From Phycisphaerae bacterium (GTDB lineage: Bacteria; Planctomycetota; Phycisphaerae; UBA1845; Fen-1342): a DNA stretch of 62,377 nucleotides. The first letter of the stretch is position 1. Every line of letters starts with the position of its first letter. The notes under the pieces were generated by a model. It was not told the origin of the DNA, made no database searches, and saw only the letters and a list, made by a program, of their open reading frames with translations. The translations under genes were made by a program, and so were the position numbers. The DNA lies in the NCBI GenBank assembly GCA_050115495.1, contig JASFQK010000041.1:1-62377 (forward strand). Reading direction: 5' to 3'. Of this stretch, positions 8,544 through 61,377 are shown piece by piece.

Positions 8544-8567
8544 GTGTCCTTCAACCCATGTCGGAGG

Positions 8568-10595: not shown

Positions 10596-10602
10596 GTTCA
10601 GC

Positions 10603-17008: not shown

Positions 17009-17017
17009 GCTCGACTC

Positions 17018-19492: not shown

Positions 19493-19503
19493 CGCGGCCT
19501 CCC

Positions 19504-22008: not shown

Positions 22009-22018
22009 GGGGTCATCC

Positions 22019-24493: not shown

Positions 24494-24504
24494 GCGTGAT
24501 TTCC

Positions 24505-26958: not shown

Positions 26959-26968
26959 CTCGTGCCTC

Positions 26969-29389: not shown

Positions 29390-29399
29390 GGGGACCTCC

Positions 29400-31977: not shown

Positions 31978-32706
<729 letters not shown>

Positions 32707-35181: not shown

Positions 35182-35190
35182 GATCCTCTC

Positions 35191-37611
35191 CTATTCACAT
35201 CGCAGCGCCGCCAGCGGATCGACCTTCGTGGCCCGCCGGGCGGGAATGAAACACGCCACCAGCACGACGCCGATGAGCAGGGCCGCCGCGCCGGCGAAGG
35301 TCGCGGTGTCGGTCGGCTGCACGCCGAATAGCCAGGCTCTCAGCACACGCGTGCCCGCATACGCCCCGACCAGCCCCAACCCGACGCCGATGATGGCCAG
35401 CCATAATCCCTGGCGAAGCACGAGTTGCAGGACCTGCCCGGCGCGGGCACCGAGCGCCAGACGCACGCCGAGCTCGTGCGTGCGCTGCGACACCGAGAAG
35501 GCCAGCACGCCGTAGATGCCGACCGCGGCTAGCGTGAGCGCCAGCGTGGCGAACAGACCGAGCAGCAGCATCGGGTAACGCCGATGGGCGACCGACCTGG
35601 ACAGGTACTGCTGCATCGTGGCGAAGGCGAACGGTGCATCGTCCGTGGTCAGCTCGGCCATCGTCCGGCGGATGTCGCCAACCAGGGCCAGCGGGTCGCG
35701 CTCGCTGTGCAGAATGAGTACGACGCTGCCGGCAGGGAACTGGCGATAGGGCACGTACATGTTCGGCTGGGCAGCGACGTCGAGGCCGTCGTCACGGACG
35801 TTGCCGACGACGCCGATAATCTCGTACTCGCGCTCGTGGCCAACCGTGGCGCCGGGTCGCAGGCGCTGGCCGATCGGGTTGCCCGTGGGCCAGTACTTGC
35901 GCGCCAGCATCTCGTCGATCACCATGACGCCGAGCTTCCCCCGCGCGTCGGCGTCATCGAAGAGCCGCCCGCGCAGCAACGGGATGTCGAACGTCGAGAA
36001 GTACTCCGGCGAAACCGAGCGCAGCCCGGCCATCGGGATCTTTGCCGATCTCGAATCGACACCGTCCACGATCGTCGCACCGGTGCGCACGCCCGTGTCC
36101 GTGAGCGGCACGCCGTTGCTCACGCTCACCTCGCGGACGGCCGGCAGGGCGCGCAGACGCTGGCAGATTCCATCCAGAACGTCGGCCCGTTGCGGATAGG
36201 GCGTCGTGGCGCCGAGGTCCATCTGGAAGGTCAGGAGGCCCTCCGTCGCGTAGCCCGGATCGGTGCCCGCCACCGTCCAGAAACTGCGGATCAGGAGACC
36301 GGCTCCGATCAGCAGCGCCGTGGCCACCGCCACCTCGCTCACGACGAGCGAGTTTTGCAGCCGGTGCTTGGCACCGGCGCCCGCCTGCCGCGTGCCGGAT
36401 TTCAGCGCAGACTGCAAGTCGACACGCGTCACGCTGATAGCCGCCGGCAAACCGAACAACACGCCGGTCAACACGGCGACGACCAGCGAGAACGAAAGCA
36501 CACGGCCGTCGATCGCAACCTCATCCAGGCGTGGGATATCCCCGGGCAGCAGCGCCATCAACGCATCACGCCCCCAGAACGCCAACAGGCAACCGAGGGC
36601 GCCGCCTAGCACGCCGAGCAACGTGCTTTCTGTCAGCAGTTGCCGCGCGAGGCGAAGCCGGCCCGCTCCCATGGCGGCGCGGATCGCCAACTCGCGCTTG
36701 CGTCCCAGACCGTGTGAGAGAAACAGGTTGGCGACGTTGCCGCAGGCGATCAGCAGGACCAGCCCCACCGCCCCCAGCAGCATCCACAACGACGAGCGCG
36801 AGCGGCCGGTCAGCGAATCCTGCAAGCCGGTCAATTGAACGCGATAGCCGTTGTTGATGTCGGGGTGTTCCTGCGCCAACCGGGCGGCGATTCCGTCCAT
36901 CTGCGCCTGGGCCTGGGCCGGCGTGACTCCAGGTTTCAGGCGGCCAATCGCGGACAGCGTCGAACTGCCGCGTGAGCAGTAGATCTGCGAGATCGCGGGC
37001 ACCGGCATCCACAACTGCGCATCCTTCACGTGGTACGGGAAGCGGAACCGCGGCAGGACACCCACGACAACGTAGCTCTCCTGATCGAGCAGGATGGACT
37101 GCCCGACAATCGCCGGGTCGGCGCCGAACTGGCGGTGCCACAGCTCACTGCCGAGCATGGCCACGTTGCCGTTGTTCCCGTCCACGTCGTCATCGGTCAG
37201 CAGTCGTCCCAGAGCGGGCTTCACACCCAGGGCCGTGAAGAAGCCGCCCGTCACCAAGGCGGCTTCGAGCCGCTCCGGCTGGACCGTGCCGGACAAGGTA
37301 CACCCGATCGGCGTGAACGCTCCGAGGCCGGTGAAGGCATCGCTCTGCGCCTGCCAGTCCCGGAAGTTCGGTAGATCCACGCCGCGCATCAACACCGGCC
37401 AGCGCACCGGGCGACGCTCCGCCGACAGCACGACCAGTTCCTCGGGCGACGCGAAATCCAGCGGCCGAAGCACGACCGCGTTGACGACGCTGAAGATAGC
37501 CGTGTTGACGCCGATGCCCAGAGCGAGCGTGAGGACCACGCAGATGGTGAAGCCGGGGCTCCGCGTCAGATCGCGAGCGGCGAATCGAATGTCCTGTAAC
37601 AGCCCATTCAC
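35191..37611 (-). CDS. double MacB/FtsX ABC permease P5
   Basis: 806 aa; close paralogue of P1; ends DPLAALRCE. Confidence 0.95.
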   Translation of the reverse strand: MNGLLQDIRFAARDLTRSPGFTICVVLTLALGIGVNTAIFSVVNAVVLRPLDFASPEELVVLSAERRPVRWPVLMRGVDLPNFRDWQAQSDAFTGLGAFTPIGCTLSGTVQPERLEAALVTGGFFTALGVKPALGRLLTDDDVDGNNGNVAMLGSELWHRQFGADPAIVGQSILLDQESYVVVGVLPRFRFPYHVKDAQLWMPVPAISQIYCSRGSSTLSAIGRLKPGVTPAQAQAQMDGIAARLAQEHPDINNGYRVQLTGLQDSLTGRSRSSLWMLLGAVGLVLLIACGNVANLFLSHGLGRKRELAIRAAMGAGRLRLARQLLTESTLLGVLGGALGCLLAFWGRDALMALLPGDIPRLDEVAIDGRVLSFSLVVAVLTGVLFGLPAAISVTRVDLQSALKSGTRQAGAGAKHRLQNSLVVSEVAVATALLIGAGLLIRSFWTVAGTDPGYATEGLLTFQMDLGATTPYPQRADVLDGICQRLRALPAVREVSVSNGVPLTDTGVRTGATIVDGVDSRSAKIPMAGLRSVSPEYFSTFDIPLLRGRLFDDADARGKLGVMVIDEMLARKYWPTGNPIGQRLRPGATVGHEREYEIIGVVGNVRDDGLDVAAQPNMYVPYRQFPAGSVVLILHSERDPLALVGDIRRTMAELTTDDAPFAFATMQQYLSRSVAHRRYPMLLLGLFATLALTLAAVGIYGVLAFSVSQRTHELGVRLALGARAGQVLQLVLRQGLWLAIIGVGLGLVGAYAGTRVLRAWLFGVQPTDTATFAGAAALLIGVVLVACFIPARRATKVDPLAALRCE

Positions 37612-37620
37612 AGCAGACTC

Positions 37621-40032
37621 CTACTCGCAGCGCAGCGCAACCAGGGGATCGATCTTCGTGGCTCGCCGGGCGGGCAGGTATCCGGCCCCGAGGGCTGCGC
37701 CGCCCAGTACGACCGCCGCAGCCACCAGCGTCGCCGGATCCAGCGGCGTTACTTCGAACAGCAGACTTCGCAGGAAGCGGCCGGCGATCAGCGCCCCGAC
37801 GAGCCCGATCGCCAATCCCAGTCCGGTCAGCAGCGCCGAGCGCCGCATCACCATCCCGAGAATCGCCCCGCCGGACGCCCCTACCGCGATGCGTACGCCG
37901 ATCTCCCGCTGGCGTTGCCCGACGGCGTGTGACATCACCGCGTAGACGCCGACCGCGGCCAGGATCAGCGCCACACCGGCGAATCCCGCCAACAAACCGG
38001 CGTACGCCCGCCAACGGAAGAGCACACGTCCCAGGCACTCGCGCAGCGTCCGCATGTTGTGAATCGGCTGGCTCGCGTCCACGGCCCATACCGCCCGCCG
38101 CACGGCGCCGGCCAGCGCCTGCGGGTTGCCTTGCGCGGCCCGCACGAGCAGGACGGCGCTGGACTGCGGCCAGCAGGCGTTGGGCACGTAGACCTCCGGC
38201 CGTACTTCGTCTCGCGGCCCCTGCCGCGTGTTCGCCGCCACACCGACCACCGTGCACCACGGATGTCCCAGCGTGAAACGCAGGCGCTTGCCGAGCGGGT
38301 CCTGGCCCGGCCAGTACGCGTCGGCAAACGCCTGGTTAACGACGGCTACCGGCGACGCGTCGGCGTCGTCCGTGTCTGCCAGCGCCCGCCCCCGCAGCAG
38401 CGGAACGCCCATCGTCGCCCAGTAACCCGGTGTGACGATCATTCGTCCGGGATAGCCGCGCTGCTCCGCCTCCTCCACCGTGTATCCCTCCGGCTGGCAG
38501 AACGTCCACGACGAACTCACGCCGGGGGGGCTGTCGGCGATCGCGGCCGCGGCACATCCCGGCTCCTGTTGCAGCCGTTCCAGGACGCCGGCGAAGAAGG
38601 CGGATCGGTCGCGCGGCTCGGGGTACCGGTAATCGGGCAGGCTGACTCGCGCGGTGAGGACGTCGTCGGAGTCGTACCCGACCGCAACGTGTTCGAGGTG
38701 GTAGAGGCTGTTCAACATGAGCCCGGCCCCGACGAGCAGCACGGTCGCCAGGGCGATCTGCGACACGACGAACGTCTCCCGCAGCCGTCCGCGCCGGCCG
38801 CTCGAACCGACCGTGTGGCCGCCGGCAAGCTGAGCGAGCCGAAGCTGCGCCCGGGCGGCGGTCAGGGCCGGGGCGACGCCGATGGGCAGCACTGCGACGG
38901 CCGCCACCAGCACGACGATCAACAGCACCGACCCGCTCGCGACGTCCGTACCGCCCTCGATCGACGGCGACGACAGCAGCCGGTGAACGGCCTGGCTGCC
39001 CCATAGCGTCAGCAACCCACCGAGGACGGCGGCGGCGCCCGCCAGGACCGCGCTTTCGGCCACAAACTGACGCAGCAGGCGGCCAGGGCCGGCACCGAGT
39101 GCGGCTCGCAGCGCGATCTCCCCGCTACGGCCGAGCGCCCGGGCCAGCAGCAGGCTGGCGACGTTGCAGCAGGCGATCAGCAGCACGAACGTAACGCCCA
39201 GCGCCAGGACCTTGAGGGCCAGGGGACGTTCGGGTCCCAGACGCGCGTCGCGCAGCGACAGCGCCCGCAGTCGGGCGTGTGGGACCTCGGTCGGGTACGC
39301 CTCTTCGAGCCGCTGTTCGATCGCATTCAGCTCCTGGTCCAGTTGGGCCAGGCTGGTATCGGGTTTGCGGACACCGAGCAGACGAATCGTGTTGGCGTAG
39401 CGCTCGTTCACGTCGACCGCCGGCGCCAACGGCATCCAGACGTCCGCCTCAAACGTCCCGTCGTCGAACGATTCGGGGATCACGCCGAGAACGGTGTACT
39501 CCTGGTTGCCCAGCGTCACCTGCTGTCCAACGACAACCGGCGAAGCGTTCAGTCGGCGACGCCAGAACTGCTCGCCCAGCAGCACGACCGGTTCGGCCCC
39601 GGGCTCGTCCTGCGACGGGCCGAATGTGTTGCCGACGAGCGCCGGAATGCCGAGCATGCCGAAGGCGTTGGCGGTGATCTGGACGGCGGCCAGACGCTCC
39701 GGCGGCTGCGTGACGGTGTAGTTCACGTGAGTGATGCGGTAGGCGGCCAGATCTTCAAGCCCCGCACATTGCTCGCGGAAGTCGCAGTAGTTCGGAAAGC
39801 TGCTGTGGGCGTCGAACCAGTTGTCGAGTGGCGGGTAAGCCGCGTGGATCACAACCAGGCGATCCTGGTCGCGGTACGGCAGCGGGCGAATCAGGGCGTG
39901 GTACCCGGCGTCGAAGACAACCGCGCACGCAGCGACGGCGACGGCCAGTGTCACCACAACCACTACGGAGAACCCCGGCTCCCGCCAGAGCTTCCGCAGA
40001 GCGAATTTCAGGTCCTGCACCAGTCCGCTCAT
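37621..40032 (-). CDS. double MacB/FtsX ABC permease P4
   Basis: 803 aa; same motif set; ends DPLVALRCE. Confidence 0.95.
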   Translation of the reverse strand: MSGLVQDLKFALRKLWREPGFSVVVVVTLAVAVAACAVVFDAGYHALIRPLPYRDQDRLVVIHAAYPPLDNWFDAHSSFPNYCDFREQCAGLEDLAAYRITHVNYTVTQPPERLAAVQITANAFGMLGIPALVGNTFGPSQDEPGAEPVVLLGEQFWRRRLNASPVVVGQQVTLGNQEYTVLGVIPESFDDGTFEADVWMPLAPAVDVNERYANTIRLLGVRKPDTSLAQLDQELNAIEQRLEEAYPTEVPHARLRALSLRDARLGPERPLALKVLALGVTFVLLIACCNVASLLLARALGRSGEIALRAALGAGPGRLLRQFVAESAVLAGAAAVLGGLLTLWGSQAVHRLLSSPSIEGGTDVASGSVLLIVVLVAAVAVLPIGVAPALTAARAQLRLAQLAGGHTVGSSGRRGRLRETFVVSQIALATVLLVGAGLMLNSLYHLEHVAVGYDSDDVLTARVSLPDYRYPEPRDRSAFFAGVLERLQQEPGCAAAAIADSPPGVSSSWTFCQPEGYTVEEAEQRGYPGRMIVTPGYWATMGVPLLRGRALADTDDADASPVAVVNQAFADAYWPGQDPLGKRLRFTLGHPWCTVVGVAANTRQGPRDEVRPEVYVPNACWPQSSAVLLVRAAQGNPQALAGAVRRAVWAVDASQPIHNMRTLRECLGRVLFRWRAYAGLLAGFAGVALILAAVGVYAVMSHAVGQRQREIGVRIAVGASGGAILGMVMRRSALLTGLGLAIGLVGALIAGRFLRSLLFEVTPLDPATLVAAAVVLGGAALGAGYLPARRATKIDPLVALRCE

Positions 40033-40047
40033 GCGTCACTCCCTGCC

Positions 40048-42477
40048 CTACTCACACCGCAACGCCGTCAGAGGATCGACGCGCGTCGCCCGCCACGCCG
40101 GCACGAGGCAGGCGAGCGTCGCCACCACCACCAGGACGACCGGTGCGATGGCGAACGTGATCGGGTCGGCGGCGCTCACGCCGAAGAGCATGCCCGAAAC
40201 GAGTCGCGACGCCGCCAGTGACGCGACGAGCCCCGCGACGATTCCGATTCCGACGAGCACCATGGCCTGCCGCAGGACGAGTCCCCGGACCTGGCCAGCC
40301 TGCGCGCCGAGCGCAACGCGCAACCCGATCTCCTGCGTCCGCTGGGCGACGATGTACGACAGCACGCCGTACAGCCCCAGCGAAGCGAGCACGAGCGCCG
40401 CACCGGCAAACGCGACCAGCAGAAACGTCATCGCTCGCCGCGGGTGCACCGTGCGGTCGATGTAGAACTCGAGCGTCCGCATCGCAAACGGGGCCTCGTC
40501 GCCCGTCAGCTCGGTCACCTCACGCCGGACGGTGTCGACGAGCTGCTCCGGATCGCCCGCCGTCCGCAGGACGAAGTACATCTGCGGCCAGGCGAGCTGT
40601 TGGTAAGGAACGTACAGATAGGGCTCCGGGCCGGCGTTAAGGCCGGCATCGCGGGCGTTGCGGACGATGCCGACGACCTCGTAGTCGGCGGGCTCGTTGT
40701 CGGTGATCCTGGCGCCGACGAACAGCCGCCGGCCGATGGGATCCTCGTCGGGCCAGAACTTCCGGGCCATTGCCTCGTTGATGAGCAGCGCGCCGGAGGC
40801 GTTTTCGGTGTCGTGCTCGTCCAGCATGCGACCCTTGAGCAACGGGACGCCGAGCGTCTGGAAGTAGTCCGGGCTCACGGCGCAGAACCGCACAACCGGC
40901 ATCTTCTCCGGATCGACGTCCGGGCGATCGAGCAGCCGGATGTGGAGCATCTGGTGACCGGGCACGAGCGGCAGCGACGTGCTCGTCCCAACGGCCGTCA
41001 CGCCCGGCACCGCGGCCAGCCGCTCCCGCAACTGGTCGTACATCCGCGCTCGCGCCGGCGGGTCCTCGTACTCAGAGAACGGCACCGCCAACTGGAACGT
41101 CAGCAGGTTTCGCGGGTTGAATCCCGGATCGACGTCCAGCAGTTGCCCCAGGCTCCGCAGCAGCAAGCCGGTCACCACCAGCAACACGACCGACAGCCCC
41201 ACCTCGCAGACGACCAGCCCGCCACGAAGGCGGCTTCGCGGCCGGCCGACGGCGGACTGGCGGTTCGTGGTCAGCATGCCGTGCGATGCCCGACGGGCGG
41301 CCTGTATGCCGGGGACGAGCCCGAAGGCGAGCGCGGTCACGACCGACAGCGCCAGCGTAAACAGCACGACGGGCGTGCCGACTTCCACATCGACCCGTCG
41401 GGGCAGTTGCTCCGGCAGCAACCCGCGCAGGGCGTCGCCGGACCACGCGGCCAGCGCCACACCCAGCAGCCCCCCCACCACACTCAATAGCAGGCTCTCG
41501 GCCAGGAACAGCCGCATCAACTGCCAGCGGCTGGCGCCGAGCGCACCGTGGACCGCCAATTCGCGGCTACGTGCCGTGCCGCGGGCCAGCAGCATGTTCC
41601 CCACGTTCGCGCACGCGATCAGCAGCACGAGCACCACCGCGCCGAAGAGCAGCTTCAGCGCGGGCCGCACGGTGGCCACGACCTCGTCATGCAGCGGGAC
41701 GACCTCGAGCGACCAGTCGTGGTTGGCGGTCGCGTACTCGGCACGCAACCGCTCGGCGATTGTGCCCAGCTCCACGCGGGCCTGCGACGCCGTAACGCCG
41801 TCGCGTAGCCGGCCGACGACGCGCAGGCGCTGGGTGGCCCGGTTCGAGTAGATGGTCGAATCGCGGGCCGTCGTCATCCAGATTTCGACGTCACTAATGC
41901 CCAGGGGGAAGGCGAAGCCCGGCGGCAGAACGCCGACGATCGTGAAGCTCAGACCGTCGATCAGGGCCGACCGGCCGATGACGTCGGGCGTGCCACCGAA
42001 GCGATTCTTCCAGCAGGCGTCGCTGATGACCATCACGTTGTCGGCGCCGGGCTCATCCTCGCCGGCCTGAAACAGCCGCCCGAGGGCCGGCCGGACGCCC
42101 AGCACCGACCAGAAGCCGTCCGTGGCGATCGTGCCGCGGAGACGCTCGGGCACGCCGACGCCACTCAGCGTCACCAGCGTGCCCCTCTGGCCGGCAAGGT
42201 TTTCGAAGCTGCTCGCCTGCTGCCGCAGGTCGGCGAGATTGGCGTACGAGATGACGCCGGCGGCGCGGCGTTGTCCGCCGTGCAGCTCGGCGACGACGAC
42301 CAGGCGATCCGCATCCGCGAAGGACAGCGGTTTGAGCAGGATGCCGTAGACGACGCTGAACATCGCCGAATTCGCGCCGATGCCCAGGGCGAGGCAGATG
42401 ATGATCGCCGCGGAAACACCCGGGCTGCGTATCAGCACGCGTGAGCCGTATCGCAGATCCTGGAGCCATCCGCGCAT
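40048..42477 (-). CDS. double MacB/FtsX ABC permease P3
   Basis: 809 aa; same motif set; ends DPLTALRCE. Confidence 0.95.
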   Translation of the reverse strand: MRGWLQDLRYGSRVLIRSPGVSAAIIICLALGIGANSAMFSVVYGILLKPLSFADADRLVVVAELHGGQRRAAGVISYANLADLRQQASSFENLAGQRGTLVTLSGVGVPERLRGTIATDGFWSVLGVRPALGRLFQAGEDEPGADNVMVISDACWKNRFGGTPDVIGRSALIDGLSFTIVGVLPPGFAFPLGISDVEIWMTTARDSTIYSNRATQRLRVVGRLRDGVTASQARVELGTIAERLRAEYATANHDWSLEVVPLHDEVVATVRPALKLLFGAVVLVLLIACANVGNMLLARGTARSRELAVHGALGASRWQLMRLFLAESLLLSVVGGLLGVALAAWSGDALRGLLPEQLPRRVDVEVGTPVVLFTLALSVVTALAFGLVPGIQAARRASHGMLTTNRQSAVGRPRSRLRGGLVVCEVGLSVVLLVVTGLLLRSLGQLLDVDPGFNPRNLLTFQLAVPFSEYEDPPARARMYDQLRERLAAVPGVTAVGTSTSLPLVPGHQMLHIRLLDRPDVDPEKMPVVRFCAVSPDYFQTLGVPLLKGRMLDEHDTENASGALLINEAMARKFWPDEDPIGRRLFVGARITDNEPADYEVVGIVRNARDAGLNAGPEPYLYVPYQQLAWPQMYFVLRTAGDPEQLVDTVRREVTELTGDEAPFAMRTLEFYIDRTVHPRRAMTFLLVAFAGAALVLASLGLYGVLSYIVAQRTQEIGLRVALGAQAGQVRGLVLRQAMVLVGIGIVAGLVASLAASRLVSGMLFGVSAADPITFAIAPVVLVVVATLACLVPAWRATRVDPLTALRCE

Positions 42478-42486
42478 GCCCGTCTC

Positions 42487-44886
42487 CTATTCACACCGCA
42501 GCGCCACCAGCGGATCGACTCTCGCCGCTCGCCGGGCCGGGACGCAGGAAGCCAGCAGGGCCACCGCAAGCAGAACGAACGGAACGAAAGCGAAGGTCTT
42601 CAAGTCGGTTGGTTCCACGCCGTAGAGCAGGCCCGTCAGCACGCGCGACAGGGCAAAGGCACCCGCGAGCCCAGCGGCAGTGCCGATGAGAACCGGAATC
42701 ATGCACCAGCCCACGGTGGTCCGAAGAACGCTCCAGCCGCTCGCCCCCAGCGCGACGCGCACGCCGATCTCGCGCGTGCGCTGCGAGACCGAGTAGCTCA
42801 GCGTGCCGTAGATGCCCACCGCAGCCAGCCCGAGCGCGACCAGGGCGAAGATGTCCATCAACAACATGCGGAAGCGCGGAGCCGCTGCCTGCCGGCCCAG
42901 GTACTCTTCCAGCGTGCGCATGGCTGACACCGGCATGTCCGGGTCCAGTCCGTGCAGACGCTCGCATAGCAAACGCTCGAGCTGCCGAGGATCGGAGCTG
43001 GTGCGAATGACGAGGTAGGTGGCGCCGCGCGGGTTCTGTTTCGCGGGCCAGTAGACCATCGGTTCCGCCGGCGCGCCGGGTCGTAGCGGCGCCACGTCGG
43101 CCGCCACGCCCACGATCGTGTGGGGCCCGCGTCCGATCGTGATCTGCTGGCCGATTGAGTCCTGGTCGAGCCAGTACTGCCTGGCCATTGTCTCGTTGAT
43201 GATGGCCACGCGCGGCGTGTCGCGCACATCGTCTTGTGTGAAGTGTCGTCCGCACAGCAGCGGGATCCCGAGCGTGCGCAGGAAGGTCGGGCTGACGTCG
43301 CAGGTGTTCGCCACCTGCGGCCGGTCAATCGACGGATCGGGTCGGCCCACGATGGTGAATTCCCCCGTTTCCCGACCGCCGAACAGCGGGCCGGCACTGC
43401 CGAGTCCGGCGGAGATCACTCCGGGTAGAGACTGCGCCTCTTCGGCGGCGCGGGCGAAAAGGTCCGTCGCCTCCCAGCCGGTCTTGTGTTTCCCGGACGA
43501 AGCCTGCAACCAGACGGTCGCGATGTTCTCTCGGTCGAATCCCGTTCCCCACCCCATCAGACTCGTGAAGCTGCGGGTGAGCAGCCCAGCCCCGACGAGC
43601 AGCATCAACGTCAGCGCAACCTCCGAGACGATCAGGCCGCCGCCGGCCCAGGACGATGCCGACCCACCTCCCTGGCGATCGCCCTTGAGTGCCTGGAACG
43701 GCGCGGCGCGACAGGACTGAATCGCCGGCACCAGCCCCGAGAGCACGCTGGCCAGCAGCGAGACCGCCAGCGCGAAGAGGAGAGCGCGGCCGTCGACAGA
43801 GACTCCACCAAGCCTCGGGATGTTCCCGGGGGCGGCTTTCGCCACCATGCCCACGACCCACGAGGCCGTCAACGCCCCCGCCAGGCCCCCCAGCAGAGAC
43901 AGCACCACGTTCTCCGCGAGCACCAGTCGCGCCAGTCGGAATCGGCCGGCGCCTACAGCGGCTCGCACCGCCAGTTCGCGGCGACGCCCCGTTGCCCGCA
44001 CCAGCAGCACGTTCGTCACGTTGGCGCAGCCGATCAGCAACACCAGCCCCGCCGCTCCGGTGAAGACCGCCATCGCCGGACGCACCGTGCCAACGATCTG
44101 CTCGTGCAGTGATTCGACGCGTACGCCCCAGCCCTCGTTCGTGTTGGGGTACTGCTGAGCCAGCCGGGCGGCGATCGTCGTCATCTCAGTGCGGGCGCGT
44201 TCGAGAGATGCACCGGGTGCCAGGCGCCCGTACGCGTAGAACCCACGCCAACTCCGCCACTGCGCCTCGCGTGGCTCGTACTGCGGCGGCGTCCAAAGCT
44301 GAACAGCCTCCAGCCGCGGGATGGACAAGCCGGCCGGCAACACGCCCACGACGACGTACGGGGTCGCGTCGAGCACGAGCGTCTGGCCGACGATGTTCGG
44401 CGAGCCGCCCAGCCGGTCGCGCCACAGCTTGTGGCTGAGAACCACGACGCGATCGGAGCCCGGGTCCAGGTCCTCCGGCGTCAAGACACGCCCGTACAAC
44501 GGGTCGATGCCCAGCACGGAGAACAGGCCCGGCATGGCCAGCCCACCGTTGACGCCCTCGGCGCCGCCGGGTCGATTGAGAATAAAGGGCCATTCGCGCC
44601 CGAGACCGAACTCCTCGATCGCCTGACTCTGCTGAGCCCAGTCCTGCACGTTCGCCACGGAGGCGACTCGGAAGCCGCTGACCTCGGGGTTGGTCTCGTA
44701 CAGACAGACGAGTCGATCGGCGTTCGGGAACGCCAGTGGGCGGAGCAGCACGCCGTCCACTACACTGAAGACGGCGGTGTTGACGCCGATACCCAGGGCG
44801 AGGCAGATGATGACCGCCGCGGAAACACCGGGGCTGCGAATCAGCACGCGTGCGCCGTACCGCAGATCCTGGAGCCATCCGCTCAT
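42487..44886 (-). CDS. double MacB/FtsX ABC permease P2
   Basis: 799 aa; same motif set; ends DPLVALRCE. Confidence 0.95.
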   Translation of the reverse strand: MSGWLQDLRYGARVLIRSPGVSAAVIICLALGIGVNTAVFSVVDGVLLRPLAFPNADRLVCLYETNPEVSGFRVASVANVQDWAQQSQAIEEFGLGREWPFILNRPGGAEGVNGGLAMPGLFSVLGIDPLYGRVLTPEDLDPGSDRVVVLSHKLWRDRLGGSPNIVGQTLVLDATPYVVVGVLPAGLSIPRLEAVQLWTPPQYEPREAQWRSWRGFYAYGRLAPGASLERARTEMTTIAARLAQQYPNTNEGWGVRVESLHEQIVGTVRPAMAVFTGAAGLVLLIGCANVTNVLLVRATGRRRELAVRAAVGAGRFRLARLVLAENVVLSLLGGLAGALTASWVVGMVAKAAPGNIPRLGGVSVDGRALLFALAVSLLASVLSGLVPAIQSCRAAPFQALKGDRQGGGSASSWAGGGLIVSEVALTLMLLVGAGLLTRSFTSLMGWGTGFDRENIATVWLQASSGKHKTGWEATDLFARAAEEAQSLPGVISAGLGSAGPLFGGRETGEFTIVGRPDPSIDRPQVANTCDVSPTFLRTLGIPLLCGRHFTQDDVRDTPRVAIINETMARQYWLDQDSIGQQITIGRGPHTIVGVAADVAPLRPGAPAEPMVYWPAKQNPRGATYLVIRTSSDPRQLERLLCERLHGLDPDMPVSAMRTLEEYLGRQAAAPRFRMLLMDIFALVALGLAAVGIYGTLSYSVSQRTREIGVRVALGASGWSVLRTTVGWCMIPVLIGTAAGLAGAFALSRVLTGLLYGVEPTDLKTFAFVPFVLLAVALLASCVPARRAARVDPLVALRCE

Positions 44887-44895
44887 CCCGGCCTC

Positions 44896-47319
44896 CTATT
44901 CACACCGCAGCGCCACGAGCGGGTCGACCTTCGTCGCCCGCCGGGCGGGAATGAGACACGCCAGCAGCGCGATGCCGACGAAGACTACCGCGGCGACAGC
45001 GAAGGTCGGTGGATCCGTCGCCTCAACGCCGAACAGCCACGCCCGCAGCAGCCGCGTGCCCGCGTAGGCACCGGTCAGCCCCAGGCCAACACCGATGATC
45101 GCCAGCCGTAAACCCTGCCAAAGCACCAGGCGTAGCACCTGGCCGGCGCGGGCCCCGAGCGCCAGCCGCACACCCAACTCGTGCGTGCGCTGGGTAACTG
45201 AGAAAGCCAGCACGCCGTAGATGCCCAGCACTGCCAATAGCAGGGCGAGCGCTGCGAACAGGCCCAGCAGCAGCATGGGATAGCGGCGATGGGCGACGGA
45301 GTCGGAGTAATACTGCTCCATCGTCGCGAAGGCGAAGGGCGCATCGTTCGCCGTCAGCTCGGCGACCGCACCGCGAATGTTGTCGATCAGGGCCAGCGGG
45401 TTGCCGCCGGTTCGCAGGCTGAGCAGGACACTGCCGTCCGGGAACTGGCGGTATGGGACGTAGATGTTCGGCCACGCCTTGACTTCGAGGCTGTTGTCAC
45501 GCACGTCGCCCACGACGCCGACGATCTCGTAGTCGCGCTTCGGTCCGATCGACGCCCCGGGGCAAACCATGTGTCCGAGCGGGTCGCCGTCCGGCCAGTA
45601 GCGGCGCGCCGTCGACTCGTCGATCAACATCGCTCCCACCTGGCTCCGCGCGTCGTTGTCGTCGAAGAGCCGCCCGCGCAGCAGCGGGATGCCGAGCGTC
45701 GCGAAGTAGCTCGGCGACACGGCCCGCATCATCGTGAACGAGGTCTCGGCCGCCTCCGGATCGGGAGCGTCCAGGATCGTGACGTTGCAGGCCATGCCCC
45801 GCCTCGTCAGCGGTAGCCCGTTGCTCAGGCATACGTTGCGCACGGTGGGCAGGCCGCGCAGGCGTTCGCAGAGCTGCTCGAAGAAATCCGCCCGTTGCGG
45901 ATGGGGCGTCGTGGCCCCGACGTCCATCTGGAAGGTCAGCACGTGGTCGGTGACGTAACCGAGCGGGACACTGGTCAGTCCGTGGAAGCTGCGGACGAGC
46001 AGGGCCGCGCCGATGAGCAGCGTCGTCGCCAGGGCGATTTCGCTAACGACGAGCGTGCTTTGCAGACGATGCCGGACGGCGACGCCGGAAGAGCGGACGC
46101 CGGACTTCAGTGCGCCGTGGAGGTCGGCGCGGGCACTGCCAATCGCCGCCGGCAGACCGAAGAGCAGGCCGGTCAGCATGGCGACGGCCACGGCGAACGC
46201 CAGCACGCGGCCGTCGATCGCCACCTCGTCCAGCCGCGGGATGTCCGCGGGCAGCAGGGCCACGAGCGCATCGAGGGCCCAGAAGGCCAATGCCACGCCG
46301 AGCGCGCCGCCGACGAGGCCGACCAGCACGCTCTCGGTCAGCAGTTGCCGCATCAGACGCAGCCGGGCGGCACCCAGGGCCGCCCGCACGGCCAATTCGC
46401 GCCGGCGTTGCAGGCCCTGCGCCAGGTAGAGGTTGGCGATGTTCGCGCAGGCGATGAGCAGCACCAGCCCCACGGCACCCAGCAGCAGCCACAGCGCCGA
46501 GCGCGATTCGCCGACGAGCGATTCGCGCATCGAAACCACGCCGATGCGATAGTTGGAATTGACGTTCGGGTATTCCTGCGCGAGGCGGGCCGCGATGTCG
46601 GTCATCTGCGTCTGCGCCTGCGCCAGGCTGACGCCCGGCTTCAGTCGGCCGGCCACGCGCAGCATCGAGCTGCTCCGCCTGCCGTACATCTGCGACTCGG
46701 CCGGCACGGGCGTCCACAGTTGCGCGTCGCGCACCTCGTACGGAAACCGGAAGCCCGGCGGCAGAACGCCGACGACCGCGAAGCCCTCCTGATCGAGCAC
46801 GATCGTCCGGCCGATGACGTCGGGGTCGGCGTCGAACCGTTTGCGCCACAGCTTGTCGCCGAGCACGACGACGTTGCCGCTCTTCCCTTCGACGTCGTCG
46901 GCGGTCAGCAGCCGGCCGAGGGCGGGCTGCGCGCCGAGCATCGGGAAGAAGCCCTCCGTGACGAACGCAGCCTCCAGTTGCACGGGCGCCCCTACGCCGG
47001 ACAACGTGTATTTCGTTGCGGAGAACGCCCCCAGGCCGTCGAAGACGGTGCTCTGCTGCTCCCAATCCCGGAAGTTCGGCAGGGCCGCGCCGCTGAGCCT
47101 CACGTTGTACGCCGGCAGTTCACGCTCAGATTCCAGCGACACGAGTTGCTCGGGGGCCTGGAAGTCCAGCGGCCGCAGCACGACCGCGTTGATGACGCTG
47201 AAGATGGCGGTGTTGGCCCCGATGCCCAACGCCAGGCAGGCGACGACAACCGCCGCGAACCCGGGCCGGCGGCCCAGCGCCCGTATCGCGTAGCGGAGAT
47301 CCTGAAGCAACGTGTTCAC
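44896..47319 (-). CDS. double MacB/FtsX ABC permease P1
   Basis: GTG start (VNTLLQDLRY) after GGGAGA; ends DPLVALRCE. Confidence 0.95.
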   Translation of the reverse strand: MNTLLQDLRYAIRALGRRPGFAAVVVACLALGIGANTAIFSVINAVVLRPLDFQAPEQLVSLESERELPAYNVRLSGAALPNFRDWEQQSTVFDGLGAFSATKYTLSGVGAPVQLEAAFVTEGFFPMLGAQPALGRLLTADDVEGKSGNVVVLGDKLWRKRFDADPDVIGRTIVLDQEGFAVVGVLPPGFRFPYEVRDAQLWTPVPAESQMYGRRSSSMLRVAGRLKPGVSLAQAQTQMTDIAARLAQEYPNVNSNYRIGVVSMRESLVGESRSALWLLLGAVGLVLLIACANIANLYLAQGLQRRRELAVRAALGAARLRLMRQLLTESVLVGLVGGALGVALAFWALDALVALLPADIPRLDEVAIDGRVLAFAVAVAMLTGLLFGLPAAIGSARADLHGALKSGVRSSGVAVRHRLQSTLVVSEIALATTLLIGAALLVRSFHGLTSVPLGYVTDHVLTFQMDVGATTPHPQRADFFEQLCERLRGLPTVRNVCLSNGLPLTRRGMACNVTILDAPDPEAAETSFTMMRAVSPSYFATLGIPLLRGRLFDDNDARSQVGAMLIDESTARRYWPDGDPLGHMVCPGASIGPKRDYEIVGVVGDVRDNSLEVKAWPNIYVPYRQFPDGSVLLSLRTGGNPLALIDNIRGAVAELTANDAPFAFATMEQYYSDSVAHRRYPMLLLGLFAALALLLAVLGIYGVLAFSVTQRTHELGVRLALGARAGQVLRLVLWQGLRLAIIGVGLGLTGAYAGTRLLRAWLFGVEATDPPTFAVAAVVFVGIALLACLIPARRATKVDPLVALRCE

Positions 47320-47381: not shown

Positions 47382-48149
<768 letters not shown>

Positions 48150-48225: not shown

Positions 48226-49479
48226 CTAACGCAGACATACGCGGTCGAACTCGTCCCAGCGGGACATGTCTGACAACACCACCTGGTCCCCAACCTCCAG
48301 GCCACGGCGAATCTCCACCGTGTCCACCGAGTTGCTGCCCAATTCCACCGGGACGCGATCCGCCGTCGTTCCGTCGGCACGCAGCCGGAACAGGCTGATC
48401 GTGCTGTTGGCCTGGGCATGGACGGGCCGGCCCACGAAGAGCACGTCGTCCAGCCGCTCGATCTCGATCGTGCCGACGATGCTCAGGTCGGGCCGGGCGC
48501 CACGCGGCAGTTCGCCCTCCAGGGCCACATCCACCGCGACCGTGGCCTCCTGCACCGCCGGGTCGATCCGCACGACGCGGCCGGGCACGATGCCGTTGCG
48601 GGTGTCGATCGACGCGACCTGGCCCGGCTGCACATCGCGGGCCTGAGTCTCCGGAATCCGCACGACGGCCTTGAGCGTGCGCACGTCGGTGACCTTGGCG
48701 AGAATTGTGCCGGCCGCCACGCGCTGCCCCACCTCGACCGGAAGCTGCTCGAGGATACCGGCCGTGCCCGCCCGCACGCGCAGCGCGTCCACCTGCGCCG
48801 CCTTCAGAGCGTGGCGGGCTCGAGCCTGCTCGATTCGCGCCCGCTGCGCCGCCAGGCGGGCCTCCCGCGAGGTGTCCCACGTCTCCAGCCGCGCCTTCTC
48901 GATTTCGATGAGCCTGGCCAACTGGTCTACGCGGGCCCGCGACAGCCGGACGTTCCGCTCAGAGATCAATCCGTCAGCGAAGAGCTCCTCATCCACTTCG
49001 CGTTGCAGAACCGCCTCCTGGTGATCGGCCTCCAGCCGGGCCACGGACGCCTCCAACGTCAGCCGCTCGTTCTGAAGCGTGACCTGGAGCGCCGCGAGAT
49101 CCGCCTCGGCGGAGGTGGCCTCCCACTCGGCGTCGGCGGCTGCCAGATCCAGCTCGGGATTGCTCAGTTCGAGCAGGACCGTCTCCGCGTCCACCTGTGC
49201 ACCGGGCAGGACGAGGACGCGCTCCACGCGCCCGTCGGTGACCGCCGGTATCCACCAGATCACTTCGGGCACGAGCGTGCCCGTGCCGCGCACGGCCCGC
49301 AGCATCGGGCCGCGTTTGACCGTGTCCAACCACACGGCGGAGCGCTCGACGCTCGGCGCCGCCGGCTCCAGCCGGGACAGGCCCCACGTGACGGCGACGA
49401 TCGCTACGGCGGCAACCACGAGCAGGCTGCTGCGAACGATCCAGCGGCGACGAGCGATGTTGGCGCGAGGTATATCCAC
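48226..49479 (-). CDS. MacA/HlyD-family periplasmic adaptor (membrane fusion protein)
   Basis: N-terminal TM helix, lipoyl half-motifs (GRVERVLVLPG; GILEQLPVEVGQRV), long alpha-hairpin, GLEVGDQVVLSD; GTG start inferred (TTG 49491 is an alternative). Confidence 0.95.
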   Translation of the reverse strand: MDIPRANIARRRWIVRSSLLVVAAVAIVAVTWGLSRLEPAAPSVERSAVWLDTVKRGPMLRAVRGTGTLVPEVIWWIPAVTDGRVERVLVLPGAQVDAETVLLELSNPELDLAAADAEWEATSAEADLAALQVTLQNERLTLEASVARLEADHQEAVLQREVDEELFADGLISERNVRLSRARVDQLARLIEIEKARLETWDTSREARLAAQRARIEQARARHALKAAQVDALRVRAGTAGILEQLPVEVGQRVAAGTILAKVTDVRTLKAVVRIPETQARDVQPGQVASIDTRNGIVPGRVVRIDPAVQEATVAVDVALEGELPRGARPDLSIVGTIEIERLDDVLFVGRPVHAQANSTISLFRLRADGTTADRVPVELGSNSVDTVEIRRGLEVGDQVVLSDMSRWDEFDRVCLR

Positions 49480-49509
49480 GTTACAGCCCAATCCTTAGTG
49501 GCCGGAGTG

Positions 49510-49524
49510 GCAAGTGACGTGCCG
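49510..49524 (-). promoter_or_regulatory. sigma54 (-24/-12) promoter of the exporter operon
   Basis: Minus strand CGGCACGTCACTTGC: GG-N10-GC, matching consensus TGGCACG-N4-TTGC, 30 bp before the adaptor start. Confidence 0.85.
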
Positions 49525-49598
49525 GCGACGAATACGTACAGAATGCGAGCGCCGACGGCCATTCGTGGCCGTTGCCGCACAACAGACACGGCTGAGGT

Positions 49599-49634
49599 GT
49601 CCGGAAATGGGACGGTCGATTCCGGAACCGGGCG
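49599..49634. promoter_or_regulatory. candidate tandem enhancer (UAS) for the NtrC-type activator
   Basis: Palindrome GTCC-N7-GGAC at 49599-49613 and a degenerate copy TTCC-N7-GGCG 21 bp away, 75-110 bp upstream of the -24 element. Confidence 0.55.
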
Positions 49635-49800
49635 CAGTCGGCGACACCGTCGCGACAGCAGCGGCCCCCCTGCCGCCGCCATAGGCTCCCGGCGCCGCTG
49701 GCCCGCGACGTGCACGTCAGACCTGCTGCGGCCGGCCGCCATGCGTTACACTGGCCGGCGACGGCGACGGCCGATCGGCCGGTAGACCGGCGGAGCGAGC

Positions 49801-51183
49801 ATGCCCCAACAGAAAGCCACAGCGACGCGGATTCTCATCGCCGACGACCAGCCGGACGTGTTGAAGGCCCTCCGCCTGCTGCTCAAGCCGGAAGGCTACG
49901 AGGTCGCCGAAGCCACCGCGCCACCGGCGATCATCGCTGCCCTGGAGAGCGAGCGGTTCGACGCCCTGCTCATGGACCTGAACTACGCTCGGGACACGAC
50001 CTCCGGACGCGAGGGGCTCGATCTGCTGCCACGCCTGCGCGAGCTGGACGACACGCTCCCGATTGTGGTGATGACCGCCTTCGGCAGCGTCGATGTGGCG
50101 GTCGAGGCGATGCGGCGCGGGGCCCGCGACTTCGTCGAGAAACCGTGGGACAACGATCGGCTGCTGACCATCCTGCGAACCCAGATCGAGTTGACGCGGG
50201 CCCTGCGGCGTGGGCAGCAACTGGAGGCCGCCAACCAAGCGCTCGGAGCCGAAGGGCAGCCCACGCTCATCGCCGAATCCCCCGCCATGCACCCCGTGCT
50301 GCAACTGATCGCCAACGTCGGCCCGTCGGAGGCCAACGTGCTGATCACCGGCGAGAACGGCACCGGCAAGGGCGTCGTCGCCCGGGCCCTGCACGCCGTC
50401 TCGACGCGCGCCGGCCGGCCGCTGATCACCGTCAACGCCCCGGGCCTGTCCGAGGGTCTGTTCGAGAGCGAGTTGTTCGGCCACGTGCGCGGGGCGTTCA
50501 CCGACGCGAAGTCCGACCGCATCGGGCGGTTCGAAATGGCCGACGGCGGCACGCTCTTCCTGGACGAAATCGCCGACCTGCCGCTGAACCTGCAAGCAAA
50601 ACTGCTGCGCGTGCTGGAAACCGGCGAGTTCGAGCGGGTCGGCTCCTCCCGTACGCAGCAGGCCAACTTCCGCGTGATCTCAGCCACAAACGCCGACGTC
50701 CAGCAGGAAATCGCCGGACGACGGTTCCGACAAGATCTGCTGTACCGACTGAACACCGTCGAGATCAGACTGCCGCCGCTGCGCGATCGGCAGGGAGACA
50801 TCGCCCTGTTGGCGGCGCACTTCCTTCGCGTCCACGCACAGCGTTGCCGCAAGCCGGTCAGCGAGTTCGAGCCGGCGGCCGTGGAGTCGCTGCTGCGCTA
50901 CGCCTGGCCGGGAAACGTCCGCGAACTGGATCACGTTGTCGAGCGCGGCGTGCTGATGGCGCGGGACGGCATCGTGCGTCGAACCGACCTCGGGCTGGAG
51001 TCGGCGGCCACGGCGAGCCAGCGGCTCGAGGACATGCCCCTCGACGAGGTGGAGGCCGTGCTGATCCGCAAGGCCCTCGCCCGGTACGACGGAAACGTGA
51101 AGCAGGCGGCCCGGGAACTCGGCCTCAGCCGCAGCGCCCTGTACCGCCGGCTGGTCAAGCACGGGTTGGCACATCGTGAGTGA
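49801..51183 (+). CDS. NtrC-family sigma54-dependent response regulator (REC-AAA+-Fis HTH)
   Basis: LLMDLNY/MTAFG/EKPW receiver; [47 protein letters not shown]-terminal HTH. Confidence 0.96.
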
Positions 51184-52594
51184 GCCAGACACGGCACGAC
51201 GGGTCACCAACGGCGAACCGCTCGCCACCGAACCGCCGGTCGCCGGCGCCGCCCATCGTGCCGGGGCGCCGAGCCGGTGGCGTTTCGAACGGCGTATTCA
51301 ACTCCTGGCCTGTCTGGCGGGTCTGCCGGCGGCGGTCGTCGCGCTGGCGCTGCTGTGGTTCGGCGATTTCACGCCCCGGACGCAATGGACGCTCACGCTG
51401 TTCGTCGTGGGCGGCTGGGCCGTCTGCGCCGCCGCCCTCGTGCAGCGCGTAGTCTATCCGCTGCGCACGATTTCCAACATGCTGGCGGCGCTGCGCGAGG
51501 GTGACTTCTCGTTACGCGGCCGCGGAGCGCGATCGGACGATGCCCTGGGCGAAGTCCTGCTCGAAATCAACGCCCTGAGCCAGACGCTCCGCGAACAGCG
51601 GCTCGGTGCCGTCGAGGCAACGACGCTGCTGCGGAAGGTCGTCGATGAGATCGACGTCGCCGTCTTCGCCTTCGATGCCGAACGCCGACTGCGCCTGGCC
51701 AACGAGGCCGGCCGGCGGCTGCTGGGCCTTGCGGACAAGCGGCTGTCCGGGCAGACCGCCGAGACGCTGGGACTGGCCCCCTGCCTCGAAGGCGAACCGA
51801 CGCGAACCGCAGACATGGCCTTTCCCGGCGGCGTCGGCCGTTGGGAGGTGCGGCGCACGACGTTCCGCACGGCGGGCCGCACGCATCAACTGGTCGTGCT
51901 CTCGGATCTCACCCGCGCTCTGCGCGAGGAGGAGCGGCAGGCGTGGAAACGCCTCGTTCAGGTTCTTCGGCACGAGATCAACAACTCGCTCGCCCCCATC
52001 GACTCGCTCGCCGGCAGTCTGGCCGCCCTGCTCAAGCGCGAGCCGCGGCCGGCGGACTGGGAGGCCGATCTCACCGAAGGCCTGACCGTCATCCGCGAAC
52101 GATCGCGAGCCCTGAACCGCTTCATGACCGCGTACAGCCAACTGACGCGACTGCCGAAACCGAAGCTCGCCCCCATGGACGTCGGCGCCTGGGCTCGCCG
52201 TGTGGCCGACCTCGAATCTCGCCTGCGCGTCACCGTGGTGCCGGGCCCCCCTGCCACGATTCAGGCCGACGCCGACCAGCTCGATCAGCTCCTGATCAAC
52301 CTGGTCCGCAACGCGGTCGATGCGGCCCTCGAAACCAGCGGCGGCGTGCACGTCGGCTGGCAACAGGACAGCGACGTGCCCGCCTGGCTGGACGTGTGGG
52401 TCGAGGACGACGGCCCCGGCCTGTCGGATAGCGAGAACCTGTTCGTGCCGTTCTTCACCACGAAACCCGACGGCGCCGGCATCGGCTTGGCACTGTGTCG
52501 GCAAATCGCCGAAGGGCACGGCGGCCAGCTCTATCTGCGAAACCGTTCCGATCGCACGGGCTGCCGGGCGTGCCTGCGCCTGCCGATGGCGTGA
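51176..52594 (+). CDS. sensor histidine kinase (2 TM with short loop, HAMP, PAS-like, HisKA, HATPase)
   Basis: HEINNSL H-box, NLVRNA N-box, DDGPG, FVPFFTTK, GAGIGL; overlaps the regulator stop. Confidence 0.95.
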   Translation: MSEPDTARRVTNGEPLATEPPVAGAAHRAGAPSRWRFERRIQLLACLAGLPAAVVALALLWFGDFTPRTQWTLTLFVVGGWAVCAAALVQRVVYPLRTISNMLAALREGDFSLRGRGARSDDALGEVLLEINALSQTLREQRLGAVEATTLLRKVVDEIDVAVFAFDAERRLRLANEAGRRLLGLADKRLSGQTAETLGLAPCLEGEPTRTADMAFPGGVGRWEVRRTTFRTAGRTHQLVVLSDLTRALREEERQAWKRLVQVLRHEINNSLAPIDSLAGSLAALLKREPRPADWEADLTEGLTVIRERSRALNRFMTAYSQLTRLPKPKLAPMDVGAWARRVADLESRLRVTVVPGPPATIQADADQLDQLLINLVRNAVDAALETSGGVHVGWQQDSDVPAWLDVWVEDDGPGLSDSENLFVPFFTTKPDGAGIGLALCRQIAEGHGGQLYLRNRSDRTGCRACLRLPMA

Positions 52595-52750
52595 CGCCCA
52601 GCTTCGAGCGCGACTGATGGGGATGCACTGCACAGACAACTGCTCGCGTTGCGACCGCGAGCGGACGGGCTACCGGTCGCTTCGCCATGGCAGGTCGCAC
52701 GTCGTGCCGTGGCCCGGCTCGCGGGCGGTCCGAACCCTCCGAGATTAAGG

Positions 52751-52797
52751 TTGCATGTAGATTCCGCGAACACCTACAATGTGCTCGAAGGTGTTCG
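52751..52797 (+). promoter_or_regulatory. putative sigma70 promoter with overlapping inverted repeat
   Basis: TTGCAT-N18-TACAAT; perfect 9-bp IR CGAACACCT-N13-AGGTGTTCG straddling the -10. Confidence 0.5.
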
Positions 52798-52889
52798 GTG
52801 AACTCCGGTGGCATCAGCCGCCCGAGACACGCCGAGCAGCGCCGCTTGCGGCGGCGTCCACTTCGTCACGTCTTGCGGGAGAAGAACGC

Positions 52890-55643: not shown

Positions 55644-55862
55644 GGCTTTCGGGATCCGGCACACAAGCTCGCCTGCACCTCAGCCCCCACCAATTGTCCG
55701 TACCGTCGGCGGCATGGCGTGGAGTACAAGCCATACTGCGGATTATAATGGGAAGCCCACGCCAGTCTGTGGGAAATAAAGGGCCCATTCCGGCGGAACA
55801 CGTCGGGGAGAGGTGCAGGGTCCATTCACGGCGGCACAAACAACGAAGAGGGAGACGATTAC

Positions 55863-61056: not shown

Positions 61057-61241
61057 GATCGGTCTTCCCTGGCTCGGCCGGACGTTCGCCGCCGGCGGGC
61101 CCGACGGTCGGCGGGCCCCACGCCGTGCCCCGATCTCACCCTGCCGGCGGGCGCGGCTGCCGGGCGGCGTCCTGGGTATCGTATCGGACGTTGGCCGGCG
61201 TGGCTGCGGGGGGCAGCCGACGGCCAAGCCGGGCCCGGCGC

Positions 61242-61269
61242 TTGACTTGACGGGCGGGGGTGATACGCT
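61242..61269 (+). promoter_or_regulatory. putative sigma70 promoter for tRNA-Asn
   Basis: TTGACT-N16-TACGCT with TGn extended -10. Confidence 0.5.
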
Positions 61270-61305
61270 AAGGGTCTGTCGGCGGTCCGCCGAACGCCCC
61301 GCCGA

Positions 61306-61377
61306 TCCCCGATAGCTCAATGGTAGAGCGAGCGGCTGTTAACCGCTAGGTTGTAGGTTCGAGTCCTACTCGGGGAG
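61306..61377 (+). tRNA. tRNA-Asn(GTT), CCA not encoded
   Basis: Acceptor TCCCCGA/TCGGGGA, D-arm GCTC-AATGGTA-GAGC, anticodon AGCGG-CTGTTAA-CCGCT, T-arm GTAGG-TTCGAGT-CCTAC. Confidence 0.97.

Follow-up and report, generated by a model that had tools for sequence, protein, structure and literature searches.

Several bacterial histidine kinases are coupled to a transporter. BceS reads BceAB through a contact of only ~460 square angstroms with lipids in between (PMC10314905), and the components of Bce modules co-evolve (PMC3023708). PhoR of E. coli, which has a membrane anchor and a PAS domain and no periplasmic sensor, is proposed to read conformations of PstSCAB (PMC5775613), and DcuS needs its PAS domain to contact DctA (PMC3892338). 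Here, we describe a locus of a Phycisphaerae bacterium (GenBank assembly GCA_050115495.1) in which a membrane histidine kinase and a sigma-54 activator stand head-to-head with a MacB-type pump operon. The window, that is, the whole stretch of DNA analyzed, is an entire 62-kb contig (JASFQK010000041.1, 62,377 nucleotides) from a 5.97-Mb genome. A first-pass annotation had proposed that the kinase has no periplasmic input domain, that the pump permeases serve as its sensors, and that it induces the whole operon. Transporter-coupled sensing in Gram-negative bacteria as such is already known from PhoR-PstSCAB (PMC5775613) and DcuS-DctA (PMC3892338). We find that the pair very probably controls the operon, while coupling of the kinase input to the transporter is put forward only tentatively from the sequences.

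The kinase part of that annotation was borne out by three views of the protein. Hydropathy gives two segments (residues ~41-63 and 70-93) joined by the linker WFGDFTPRTQW; the AlphaFold2 model has a helical hairpin, H37-62 / H67-108, with a 4-residue turn (pLDDT 78-88 over residues 41-90; pTM 0.43 overall); and in a family alignment of 127 sequences, from which 8 of 135 rows not covering both ends had been dropped, 122 relatives have two hydrophobic segments and 125 have 26-33 residues from mid-TM1 to mid-TM2 (TM, transmembrane helix). Topology prediction, suggested earlier as a check, thus returned a two-helix hairpin, and since segment number and spacing hold in nearly all of the alignment, the absence of an outer sensor domain is, judged from sequence, a trait of the whole kinase family. 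The earlier domain list was right about the hairpin and the PAS-like domain and overlooked a HAMP domain between TM2 and PAS. This domain matches PF00672 below the cut-off (residues 88-140, E 0.014), is detected at E<=0.05 in 8 of 36 family members, and forms helix-connector-helix in the AlphaFold2 model.

This kinase family is very large, with at least 8000 sequences past E 1e-40; at the E 1e-30 level and beyond there are 1643 clusters at 50% identity, some of which may be other kinases. The window kinase reached none of the NCBIfam cut-offs for named kinases (NtrB, AtoS, ZraS, PhoR, WalK) among 20 models listed, none of which is for NtrY; its best scores were 99.5 of 646 bits for AtoS, 74 of 479 for ZraS and 48 of 334 for PhoR. 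By sequence there is no solved structure of a close relative (best E 3e-16), and fold searches with the whole model were dominated by matches to the kinase core. The overall layout resembles HAMP-PAS-DHp-CA kinases such as WalK.

The regulator encoded with the kinase is a sigma-54 activator composed of a receiver, an AAA domain with Walker motifs and HTH_8. As annotated before, this NtrC-type protein and the kinase lie on the plus strand, divergent from the operon on the minus strand. Its sigma-54 contact motif reads GAFTDA instead of GAFTGA, as in 77 of 82 relatives, and NorR with this substitution can still activate (PMC2941729). Very probably, the kinase phosphorylates the activator, which would bind a 37-bp dyad and open a sigma-54 promoter 73 nt away.

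The evidence for this switch lies partly in the DNA between the two transcription units. The box CGGCACGTCACTTGC is the only match to the -24/-12 consensus with a single mismatch in the window. Taken alone it is weak, because matches with <=2 mismatches occur near chance level (60 observed, 68.4 expected); its position and the neighboring dyad make it credible, and with them the -24/-12 promoter of the earlier annotation. Upstream of the adaptor gene, a box with <=2 mismatches was present in 14 of 22 relatives, a count made with no shuffle control, and three of the misses were adaptors lying inside an operon. The same upstream regions also contained a 37-bp dyad. Its template was derived by visual inspection that took in the window itself, and a matrix was then trained on the 10 of 22 relatives that fitted it with <=8 mismatches. 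With this matrix the window dyad was the top score among 5,971,034 genome positions (24.3 bits; runner-up 20.9), and no other site among the top 25 had a 1-mismatch -24/-12 box near it. In a later scan of 13 loci, three of them stretches without an adaptor, the dyad immediately preceded the adaptor, with 1-3 mismatches of 24, in five held-out loci of the window's order, four of which also have the box. The dyad was absent from the pump region (L189) of G712, a genome in which no kinase was found, and none with <6 mismatches was seen in four loci from the class of the genome carrying L023. No sigma-70 promoter match was found in 49400-53000, and a 2-mismatch sigma-54-like site on the plus strand at 49699 is at chance level. 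A 2025 survey reports predicted sigma-54 promoters to be enriched before COG0577 FtsX-like permeases in gamma-Proteobacteria, Opitutia and Bacteroidia (PMC12316311). The dyad and the -24/-12 box are also intact at L102 (G127:C92, 523-7030), an adaptor-ATPase-ADOP-TolC operon.

Gene linkage points the same way. In the best 80 of 598 genome loci the activator adjoined the kinase in 77, and among the 64 with >=4.5 kb upstream, the other 16 being too short to count, at least one pump gene (for a permease, an adaptor or the cognate ATPase) lay <=10 kb away in 55. Among 80 metagenome loci, the activator was beside the kinase in 62 of 66 and a pump part <=10 kb away in 32 of 33. The named loci come from Acidobacteriota, Gemmatimonadota, Verrucomicrobiota, Pseudomonadota, Bacteroidota and others, and the linkage extends across at least seven phyla. 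It was also seen in 10 of 12 annotated records, inspected out of 30 matches in a plasmid collection, which have an adaptor and/or an 800-residue permease beside the pair at kinase identities of 27-38%: Rahnella, three Pseudoalteromonas, Xenorhabdus, Acetobacter, Fulvitalea, two Hymenobacter and one Parabacteroides. Six of these 10 have the head-to-head layout of the window, and one further Parabacteroides copy adjoins TolC. In the class of the L023 genome, four of five regions have an adaptor and/or permease beside the pair. Judged by its genes, then, the cassette is common in many Gram-negative bacteria.

Within the window's own order the cassette is rare, and its distribution is informative. 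Among 279 genomes, 12 carry the kinase, 21 carry ADOP permeases (TIGR03434) and 11 carry both, where ~0.9 would be expected if the two were independent, although related genomes are not independent. The co-occurrence is nested in these genomes: the kinase is nearly always found with the pump, and the pump can occur without the kinase. Since the kinase is found in 12 of 279 genomes of the order, and neither kinase nor ADOP in any of six genus mates, the cassette is, by its distribution, mobile or often lost. One of the 11 genomes with both, G056, holds a decayed remnant (L101, G056:C27, 10140-14852) with a kinase lacking its N-terminal 198 residues, an adaptor start fused to a partial ATPase, a partial permease and TolC. 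Elsewhere, a permease gene lies between activator and kinase (L144, 4713-10993), and a phosphopantetheinyl transferase gene lies 3' of the cassette in Rahnella and Xenorhabdus (L083, 5966-13834; L085, 5863-13964); the Rahnella cassette sits inside a biosynthetic cluster, hinting at natural-product export. Linkage across phyla, nested co-occurrence and the dyad with its box together support well, if indirectly, the earlier proposal that the pair controls the whole operon.

The operon itself runs on the minus strand from 49479 to 12873 and comprises 17 tightly packed genes (36.6 kb) in the order adaptor, ATPase 1, six permeases, ATPase 2, seven permeases and TolC. Gaps between permease genes are <=15 nt, and the biggest in the operon, 148 nt, follows ATPase 2. 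The count of thirteen permeases was correct: all score above the TIGR03434 cut-off of 622.3 bits over the full model (786-943 bits), and no further ADOP passes it anywhere in the genome, where the kinase and rpoN are also single-copy. The permeases share 33-65% identity, and each has two MacB_PCD and two FtsX stretches; in permease 1, seven hydrophobic blocks exceed the hydropathy threshold, with large loops after TM1 and TM5. The "orphan" in the ADOP family name, which we take to mean that no ATPase gene lies alongside, does not describe these proteins, which share their operon with two ATPases, an adaptor and TolC.

The ATPases that accompany the cassette (window, loci L003-L082) belong to two distinct families, each of them conserved. 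In the ATPase 2 family the D-loop reads GNLH for GNLD, a change that looks invariant (consensus of 39), with the other motifs intact, suggesting, from sequence, an asymmetric ATPase pair for the fused permease. Its gene often directly precedes the activator. Because ATPase 2 was absent from the proteobacterial and Bacteroidota loci seen, it is not needed everywhere.

What the kinase detects is a separate matter from what it controls, and linkage cannot separate sensing via the permeases from plain regulation, because any regulator-target pair gives linkage. We tentatively favor a reading, which we would put somewhat short of an even chance, in which the pair switches on the operon and the kinase, instead of binding a ligand itself, monitors the activity of the pump. 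The lack of a sensor domain throughout the family and the precedents cited above are in its favor, as is the scarcity of marks of a binding site: no polar residue is conserved inside the kinase helices in the family alignment, and no Cys or His of the PAS domain is conserved at >=80% (Cys203 17%, His237 62%), so that a cofactor signature is missing. Somewhat less probable, though a strong rival, is direct sensing in the membrane, where the kinase hairpin would respond to a hydrophobic compound or to an altered bilayer and the pump would be output only. HssS, which reportedly responds to heme in the membrane by inducing the HrtBA efflux pump, offers a precedent, and HrtB has been discussed as a MacB homologue (PMC5985334). 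The same linkage and enhancer evidence fits this alternative, as do the lack of a dedicated partner permease and the occurrence of a kinase relative beside other transporter types; but a binding site in the helices would have to do without a conserved polar residue, Pro51 (87%) being the only position of the membrane region above 80%, and of the 12 genomes of the order that carry the kinase, a single one, which is 76% complete, has no detected ADOP. More doubtful still is an input in which the PAS domain binds a metabolite or cofactor from the cytoplasm, with the helices only as an anchor in a pair that again controls the operon. PAS is conserved like HAMP and more than the helices (top-residue frequency 0.48 and 0.49 for PAS and HAMP), it has conserved charges (Arg226 70%, Arg231 82%, Asp244 92%), and the WalK-like layout would suit this role; yet the Cys/His pattern gives no sign of a heme or flavin ligand, and the domain is compact in the AlphaFold2 model. 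In DcuS, moreover, signal transfer and contact with the transporter are the tasks of the cytoplasmic PAS (PMC3892338). The first-pass annotation had listed PAS as an alternative input, which it need not be, because in the PhoR and DcuS systems PAS is the coupling site. That the pair is an NtrY/NtrX-like nitrogen or general regulator, placed next to the pump by chance, is very improbable: many matches carry the automatic name "nitrogen regulation sensor histidine kinase NtrY", but both proteins score far below the cut-offs of the NtrX, NtrC, AtoC/AtoS and ZraR/ZraS models, linkage is kept across the phyla, and the best dyad of the genome sits at the pump promoter.

A number of results weigh against the favored reading. 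A tree of 115 permeases, in which the window's 13 fall into four groups, is star-like, and no lineage follows the kinase, whereas Bce components co-evolve (PMC3023708). The helices and loop of the kinase are its least conserved parts (top-residue frequency 0.39, 0.19 and 0.29). The by-eye template was fitted with <=8 mismatches in only 11 of 23 upstream regions, and in G127 (97% complete), where dyad and promoter are retained, neither a cognate kinase nor a cognate activator was found. Nine of the 64 genome loci have the pair separated from pump genes, although all nine genomes hold an ADOP elsewhere, and one Parabacteroides kinase relative has an MFS transporter as its neighbor and no MacB part in the surrounding 15 kb. 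In the order, 10 of the 21 ADOP genomes lack the kinase; many of these assemblies are in pieces, but completeness is 94-99% for G127, G618 and G712. Finally, a kinase that senses its signal directly and only regulates the pump would give all the comparative results just as readily.

Attempts to find a partner among the permeases gave little. A dedicated "sensor permease", suspected from best-hit labels, was not borne out by the permease tree. A search for kinase-permease fusions among longer proteins returned five matches (three activator-kinase read-throughs and two other joins), none with a permease domain, a blank that is weak evidence. Pairwise-identity correlations with the kinase (activator 0.53, ATPase 1 0.40, ATPase 2 0.49, adaptor 0.83, nearest permease 0.32) were not used, since locus sets differ and ancestry is shared. 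When the TM-HAMP part of the kinase (residues 36-132) was modeled as a dimer together with permease 1, one of the 13, the score was 0.00; the controls did not fold, and the result speaks neither for nor against an interface. The earlier suggestion that failure to find a kinase-permease interface should decide against the idea asks too much of such a prediction, as the BceS-BceB contact is itself small and lipid-separated (PMC10314905).

Should the kinase read the pump, its signal would be pump activity. Because no permease lineage tracks the kinase, and identity to the window's proteins in the compared loci is 55-63% for kinases against near 40% for permeases, coupling would more likely go through a shared part: the ATPases, the anchor of the adaptor, or a generic permease surface. 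On sequence and gene-order grounds, this part could be ATPase 2. The signal could then be relayed from that contact via HAMP and PAS, instead of arriving as 13 permease-specific signals, and the various permeases would plug into one motor and exit duct, widening the response range of a single switch. By precedent from the MacB family, the substrates might be envelope-active peptides or hydrophobic compounds. A broader scheme, in which this is a widespread sigma-54 Gram-negative circuit whose one kinase docks on the shared pump core, integrates the turnover of many interchangeable permeases, perhaps with the D-loop-variant ATPase as its signaling subunit, and scales the operon to need, seems unlikely as a whole.

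Positions of the pump, promoter and regulatory features in the window
Feature	Position	Strand	Remarks
TolC-like outer-membrane exit channel	12873..14555	-	final gene of operon; PF02321 twice
ADOP permeases 7-13, block	14546..31829	-	gaps <=11 nt
ADOP permeases 11, 12, 13	19504-22008, 17018-19507, 14546-17008	-	
ADOP permeases 7, 8, 9, 10	29400-31829, 26969-29389, 24505-26958, 22019-24493	-	
ABC ATPase 2	31978..32706	-	separate conserved family; GNLH (His for D-loop Asp)
ADOP permeases 1-6, block	32758..47319	-	gaps 9-15 nt
ADOP permeases 4, 5, 6	37621-40032, 35191-37611, 32758-35181	-	
ADOP permeases 1, 2, 3	44896-47319, 42487-44886, 40048-42477	-	
ABC ATPase 1 (MacB/LolD-like)	47382..48149	-	start codon inferred
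Periplasmic adaptor (MacA/HlyD-like)	48226..49479	-	TIGR01730 above cut-off; start codon inferred
Predicted sigma-54 -24/-12 promoter of pump operon, CGGCACGTCACTTGC	49510..49524	-	73 nt from dyad
37-bp dyad, predicted activator enhancer	49598..49634	.	two inverted 16-bp sites, 5-bp spacer
Sigma-54 enhancer-binding response regulator (receiver, AAA, Fis-type HTH)	49801..51183	+	overlaps kinase start by 8 nt
Membrane histidine kinase, 472 aa	51176..52594	+	TM1-short turn-TM2-HAMP-PAS-DHp(His266)-CA; no periplasmic domain
Kinase membrane hairpin, residues ~41-92	51296..51451	+	hydropathy, AlphaFold2 model, family alignment
HAMP-like domain, residues ~93-143	51452..51604	+	PF00672 below cut-off; model
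Compact cytoplasmic PAS, residues 151-246	51626..51913	+	

Other genes surround the locus. An ArsR-type regulator (12216-12614) and a respiratory cluster (5982-11703, minus strand) with a multiheme cytochrome (paired CXXCH), an NrfD-class III cytochrome fusion and a 4Fe-4S protein lie on the TolC side. A 954-residue beta-propeller/Ig surface protein and a 679-residue erythromycin-esterase-family protein are encoded 3' of the kinase (52779-57902, plus strand) and were not seen as conserved neighbors of the pair. Toward the contig ends are a 750-residue open reading frame with no Pfam match (143-2395, plus strand) and a DNA photolyase gene (59629-61320, minus strand).

The module is real, widespread and uncharacterized. 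ADOP permeases form a large family in soil bacteria, and some acidobacterial genomes have 25 to >50 permease matches compared with the 13 of the window. Literature searches, with most subscription journals outside their coverage, found no functional study of ADOP permeases and no experimental study of the kinase-activator-pump module. New here are the form with 13 permeases in a single operon, the largest seen, a defined enhancer that holds in held-out relatives, and the nested co-occurrence where the cassette is rare. All ADOPs of this genome, the motors, adaptor, exit duct, regulator pair and candidate enhancer stand together, and a direct reporter assay for inducers and substrates is therefore at hand. 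Single-permease versions in culturable Pseudoalteromonas, such as that of P. xiamenensis with the genes adaptor-ATPase-permease-activator-kinase, make the sensing question approachable by a few deletions. If the pump is the sensor, Bce-like need-based control of efflux would extend to Gram-negative tripartite pumps, with one kinase reading many permeases; if it is not, this would still be an uncharacterized and very common sigma-54 efflux regulon.

Among described systems, MacAB-TolC and YbbAP share with the window an adaptor, an ATPase, a MacB-fold permease and TolC (PMC5985334, PMC12646458), and ADOP resembles YbbP in that two MacB units are fused and the ATPase is a protein apart. MacAB is under PhoPQ and has one permease, whereas the window has a neighboring dedicated sigma-54 pair and a permease array. 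Sigma-54 control of FtsX-like permeases has been predicted in the survey mentioned above, and the available parts of that paper name no activator, kinase, enhancer or sensing mechanism (PMC12316311). The transporter DctA is a secondary carrier, whereas that of the window is an ABC pump. DcuS is fumarate-responsive and has a periplasmic sensor domain. What it shares with the window kinase is a cytoplasmic PAS between membrane and kinase parts (PMC3892338). PhoR-PhoU-PstSCAB shares a Gram-negative kinase that lacks a periplasmic sensor and is built from membrane anchor, PAS, DHp and CA, but Pst is an importer needing PhoU, and the window cassette has no gene for such an adaptor (PMC5775613).

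Like the window kinase, Bce kinases are encoded beside the type VII (MacB/FtsX-like) ABC transporter that they would induce. The Bce permease has 10 TM and one large loop, TM7-TM8, whereas each window permease has about eight helices and, on the periplasmic side, two MacB domains. By definition, a Bce kinase also signals only with its transporter and in a complex with it, a coupling that is hypothetical for the window. BceR is OmpR-type and PhoB is not a sigma-54 activator, whereas the window regulator is one (receiver-AAA-HTH_8). The window also differs in the PAS of its kinase and in having an adaptor, TolC, 13 permeases and two ATPases. Bce modules are restricted to Firmicutes, whereas the window family, known here from genes alone, is found in Gram-negative hosts. 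Bce kinases have two TM, a loop under 11 residues and HAMP, as does ours, which lies within the definition of two TM with a loop of 3-11 residues (PMC3023708). Measured by its genes, the locus is thus not a Bce module, as the kinase fits and permease topology, regulator type and range do not; by analogy, it may perhaps work like one.

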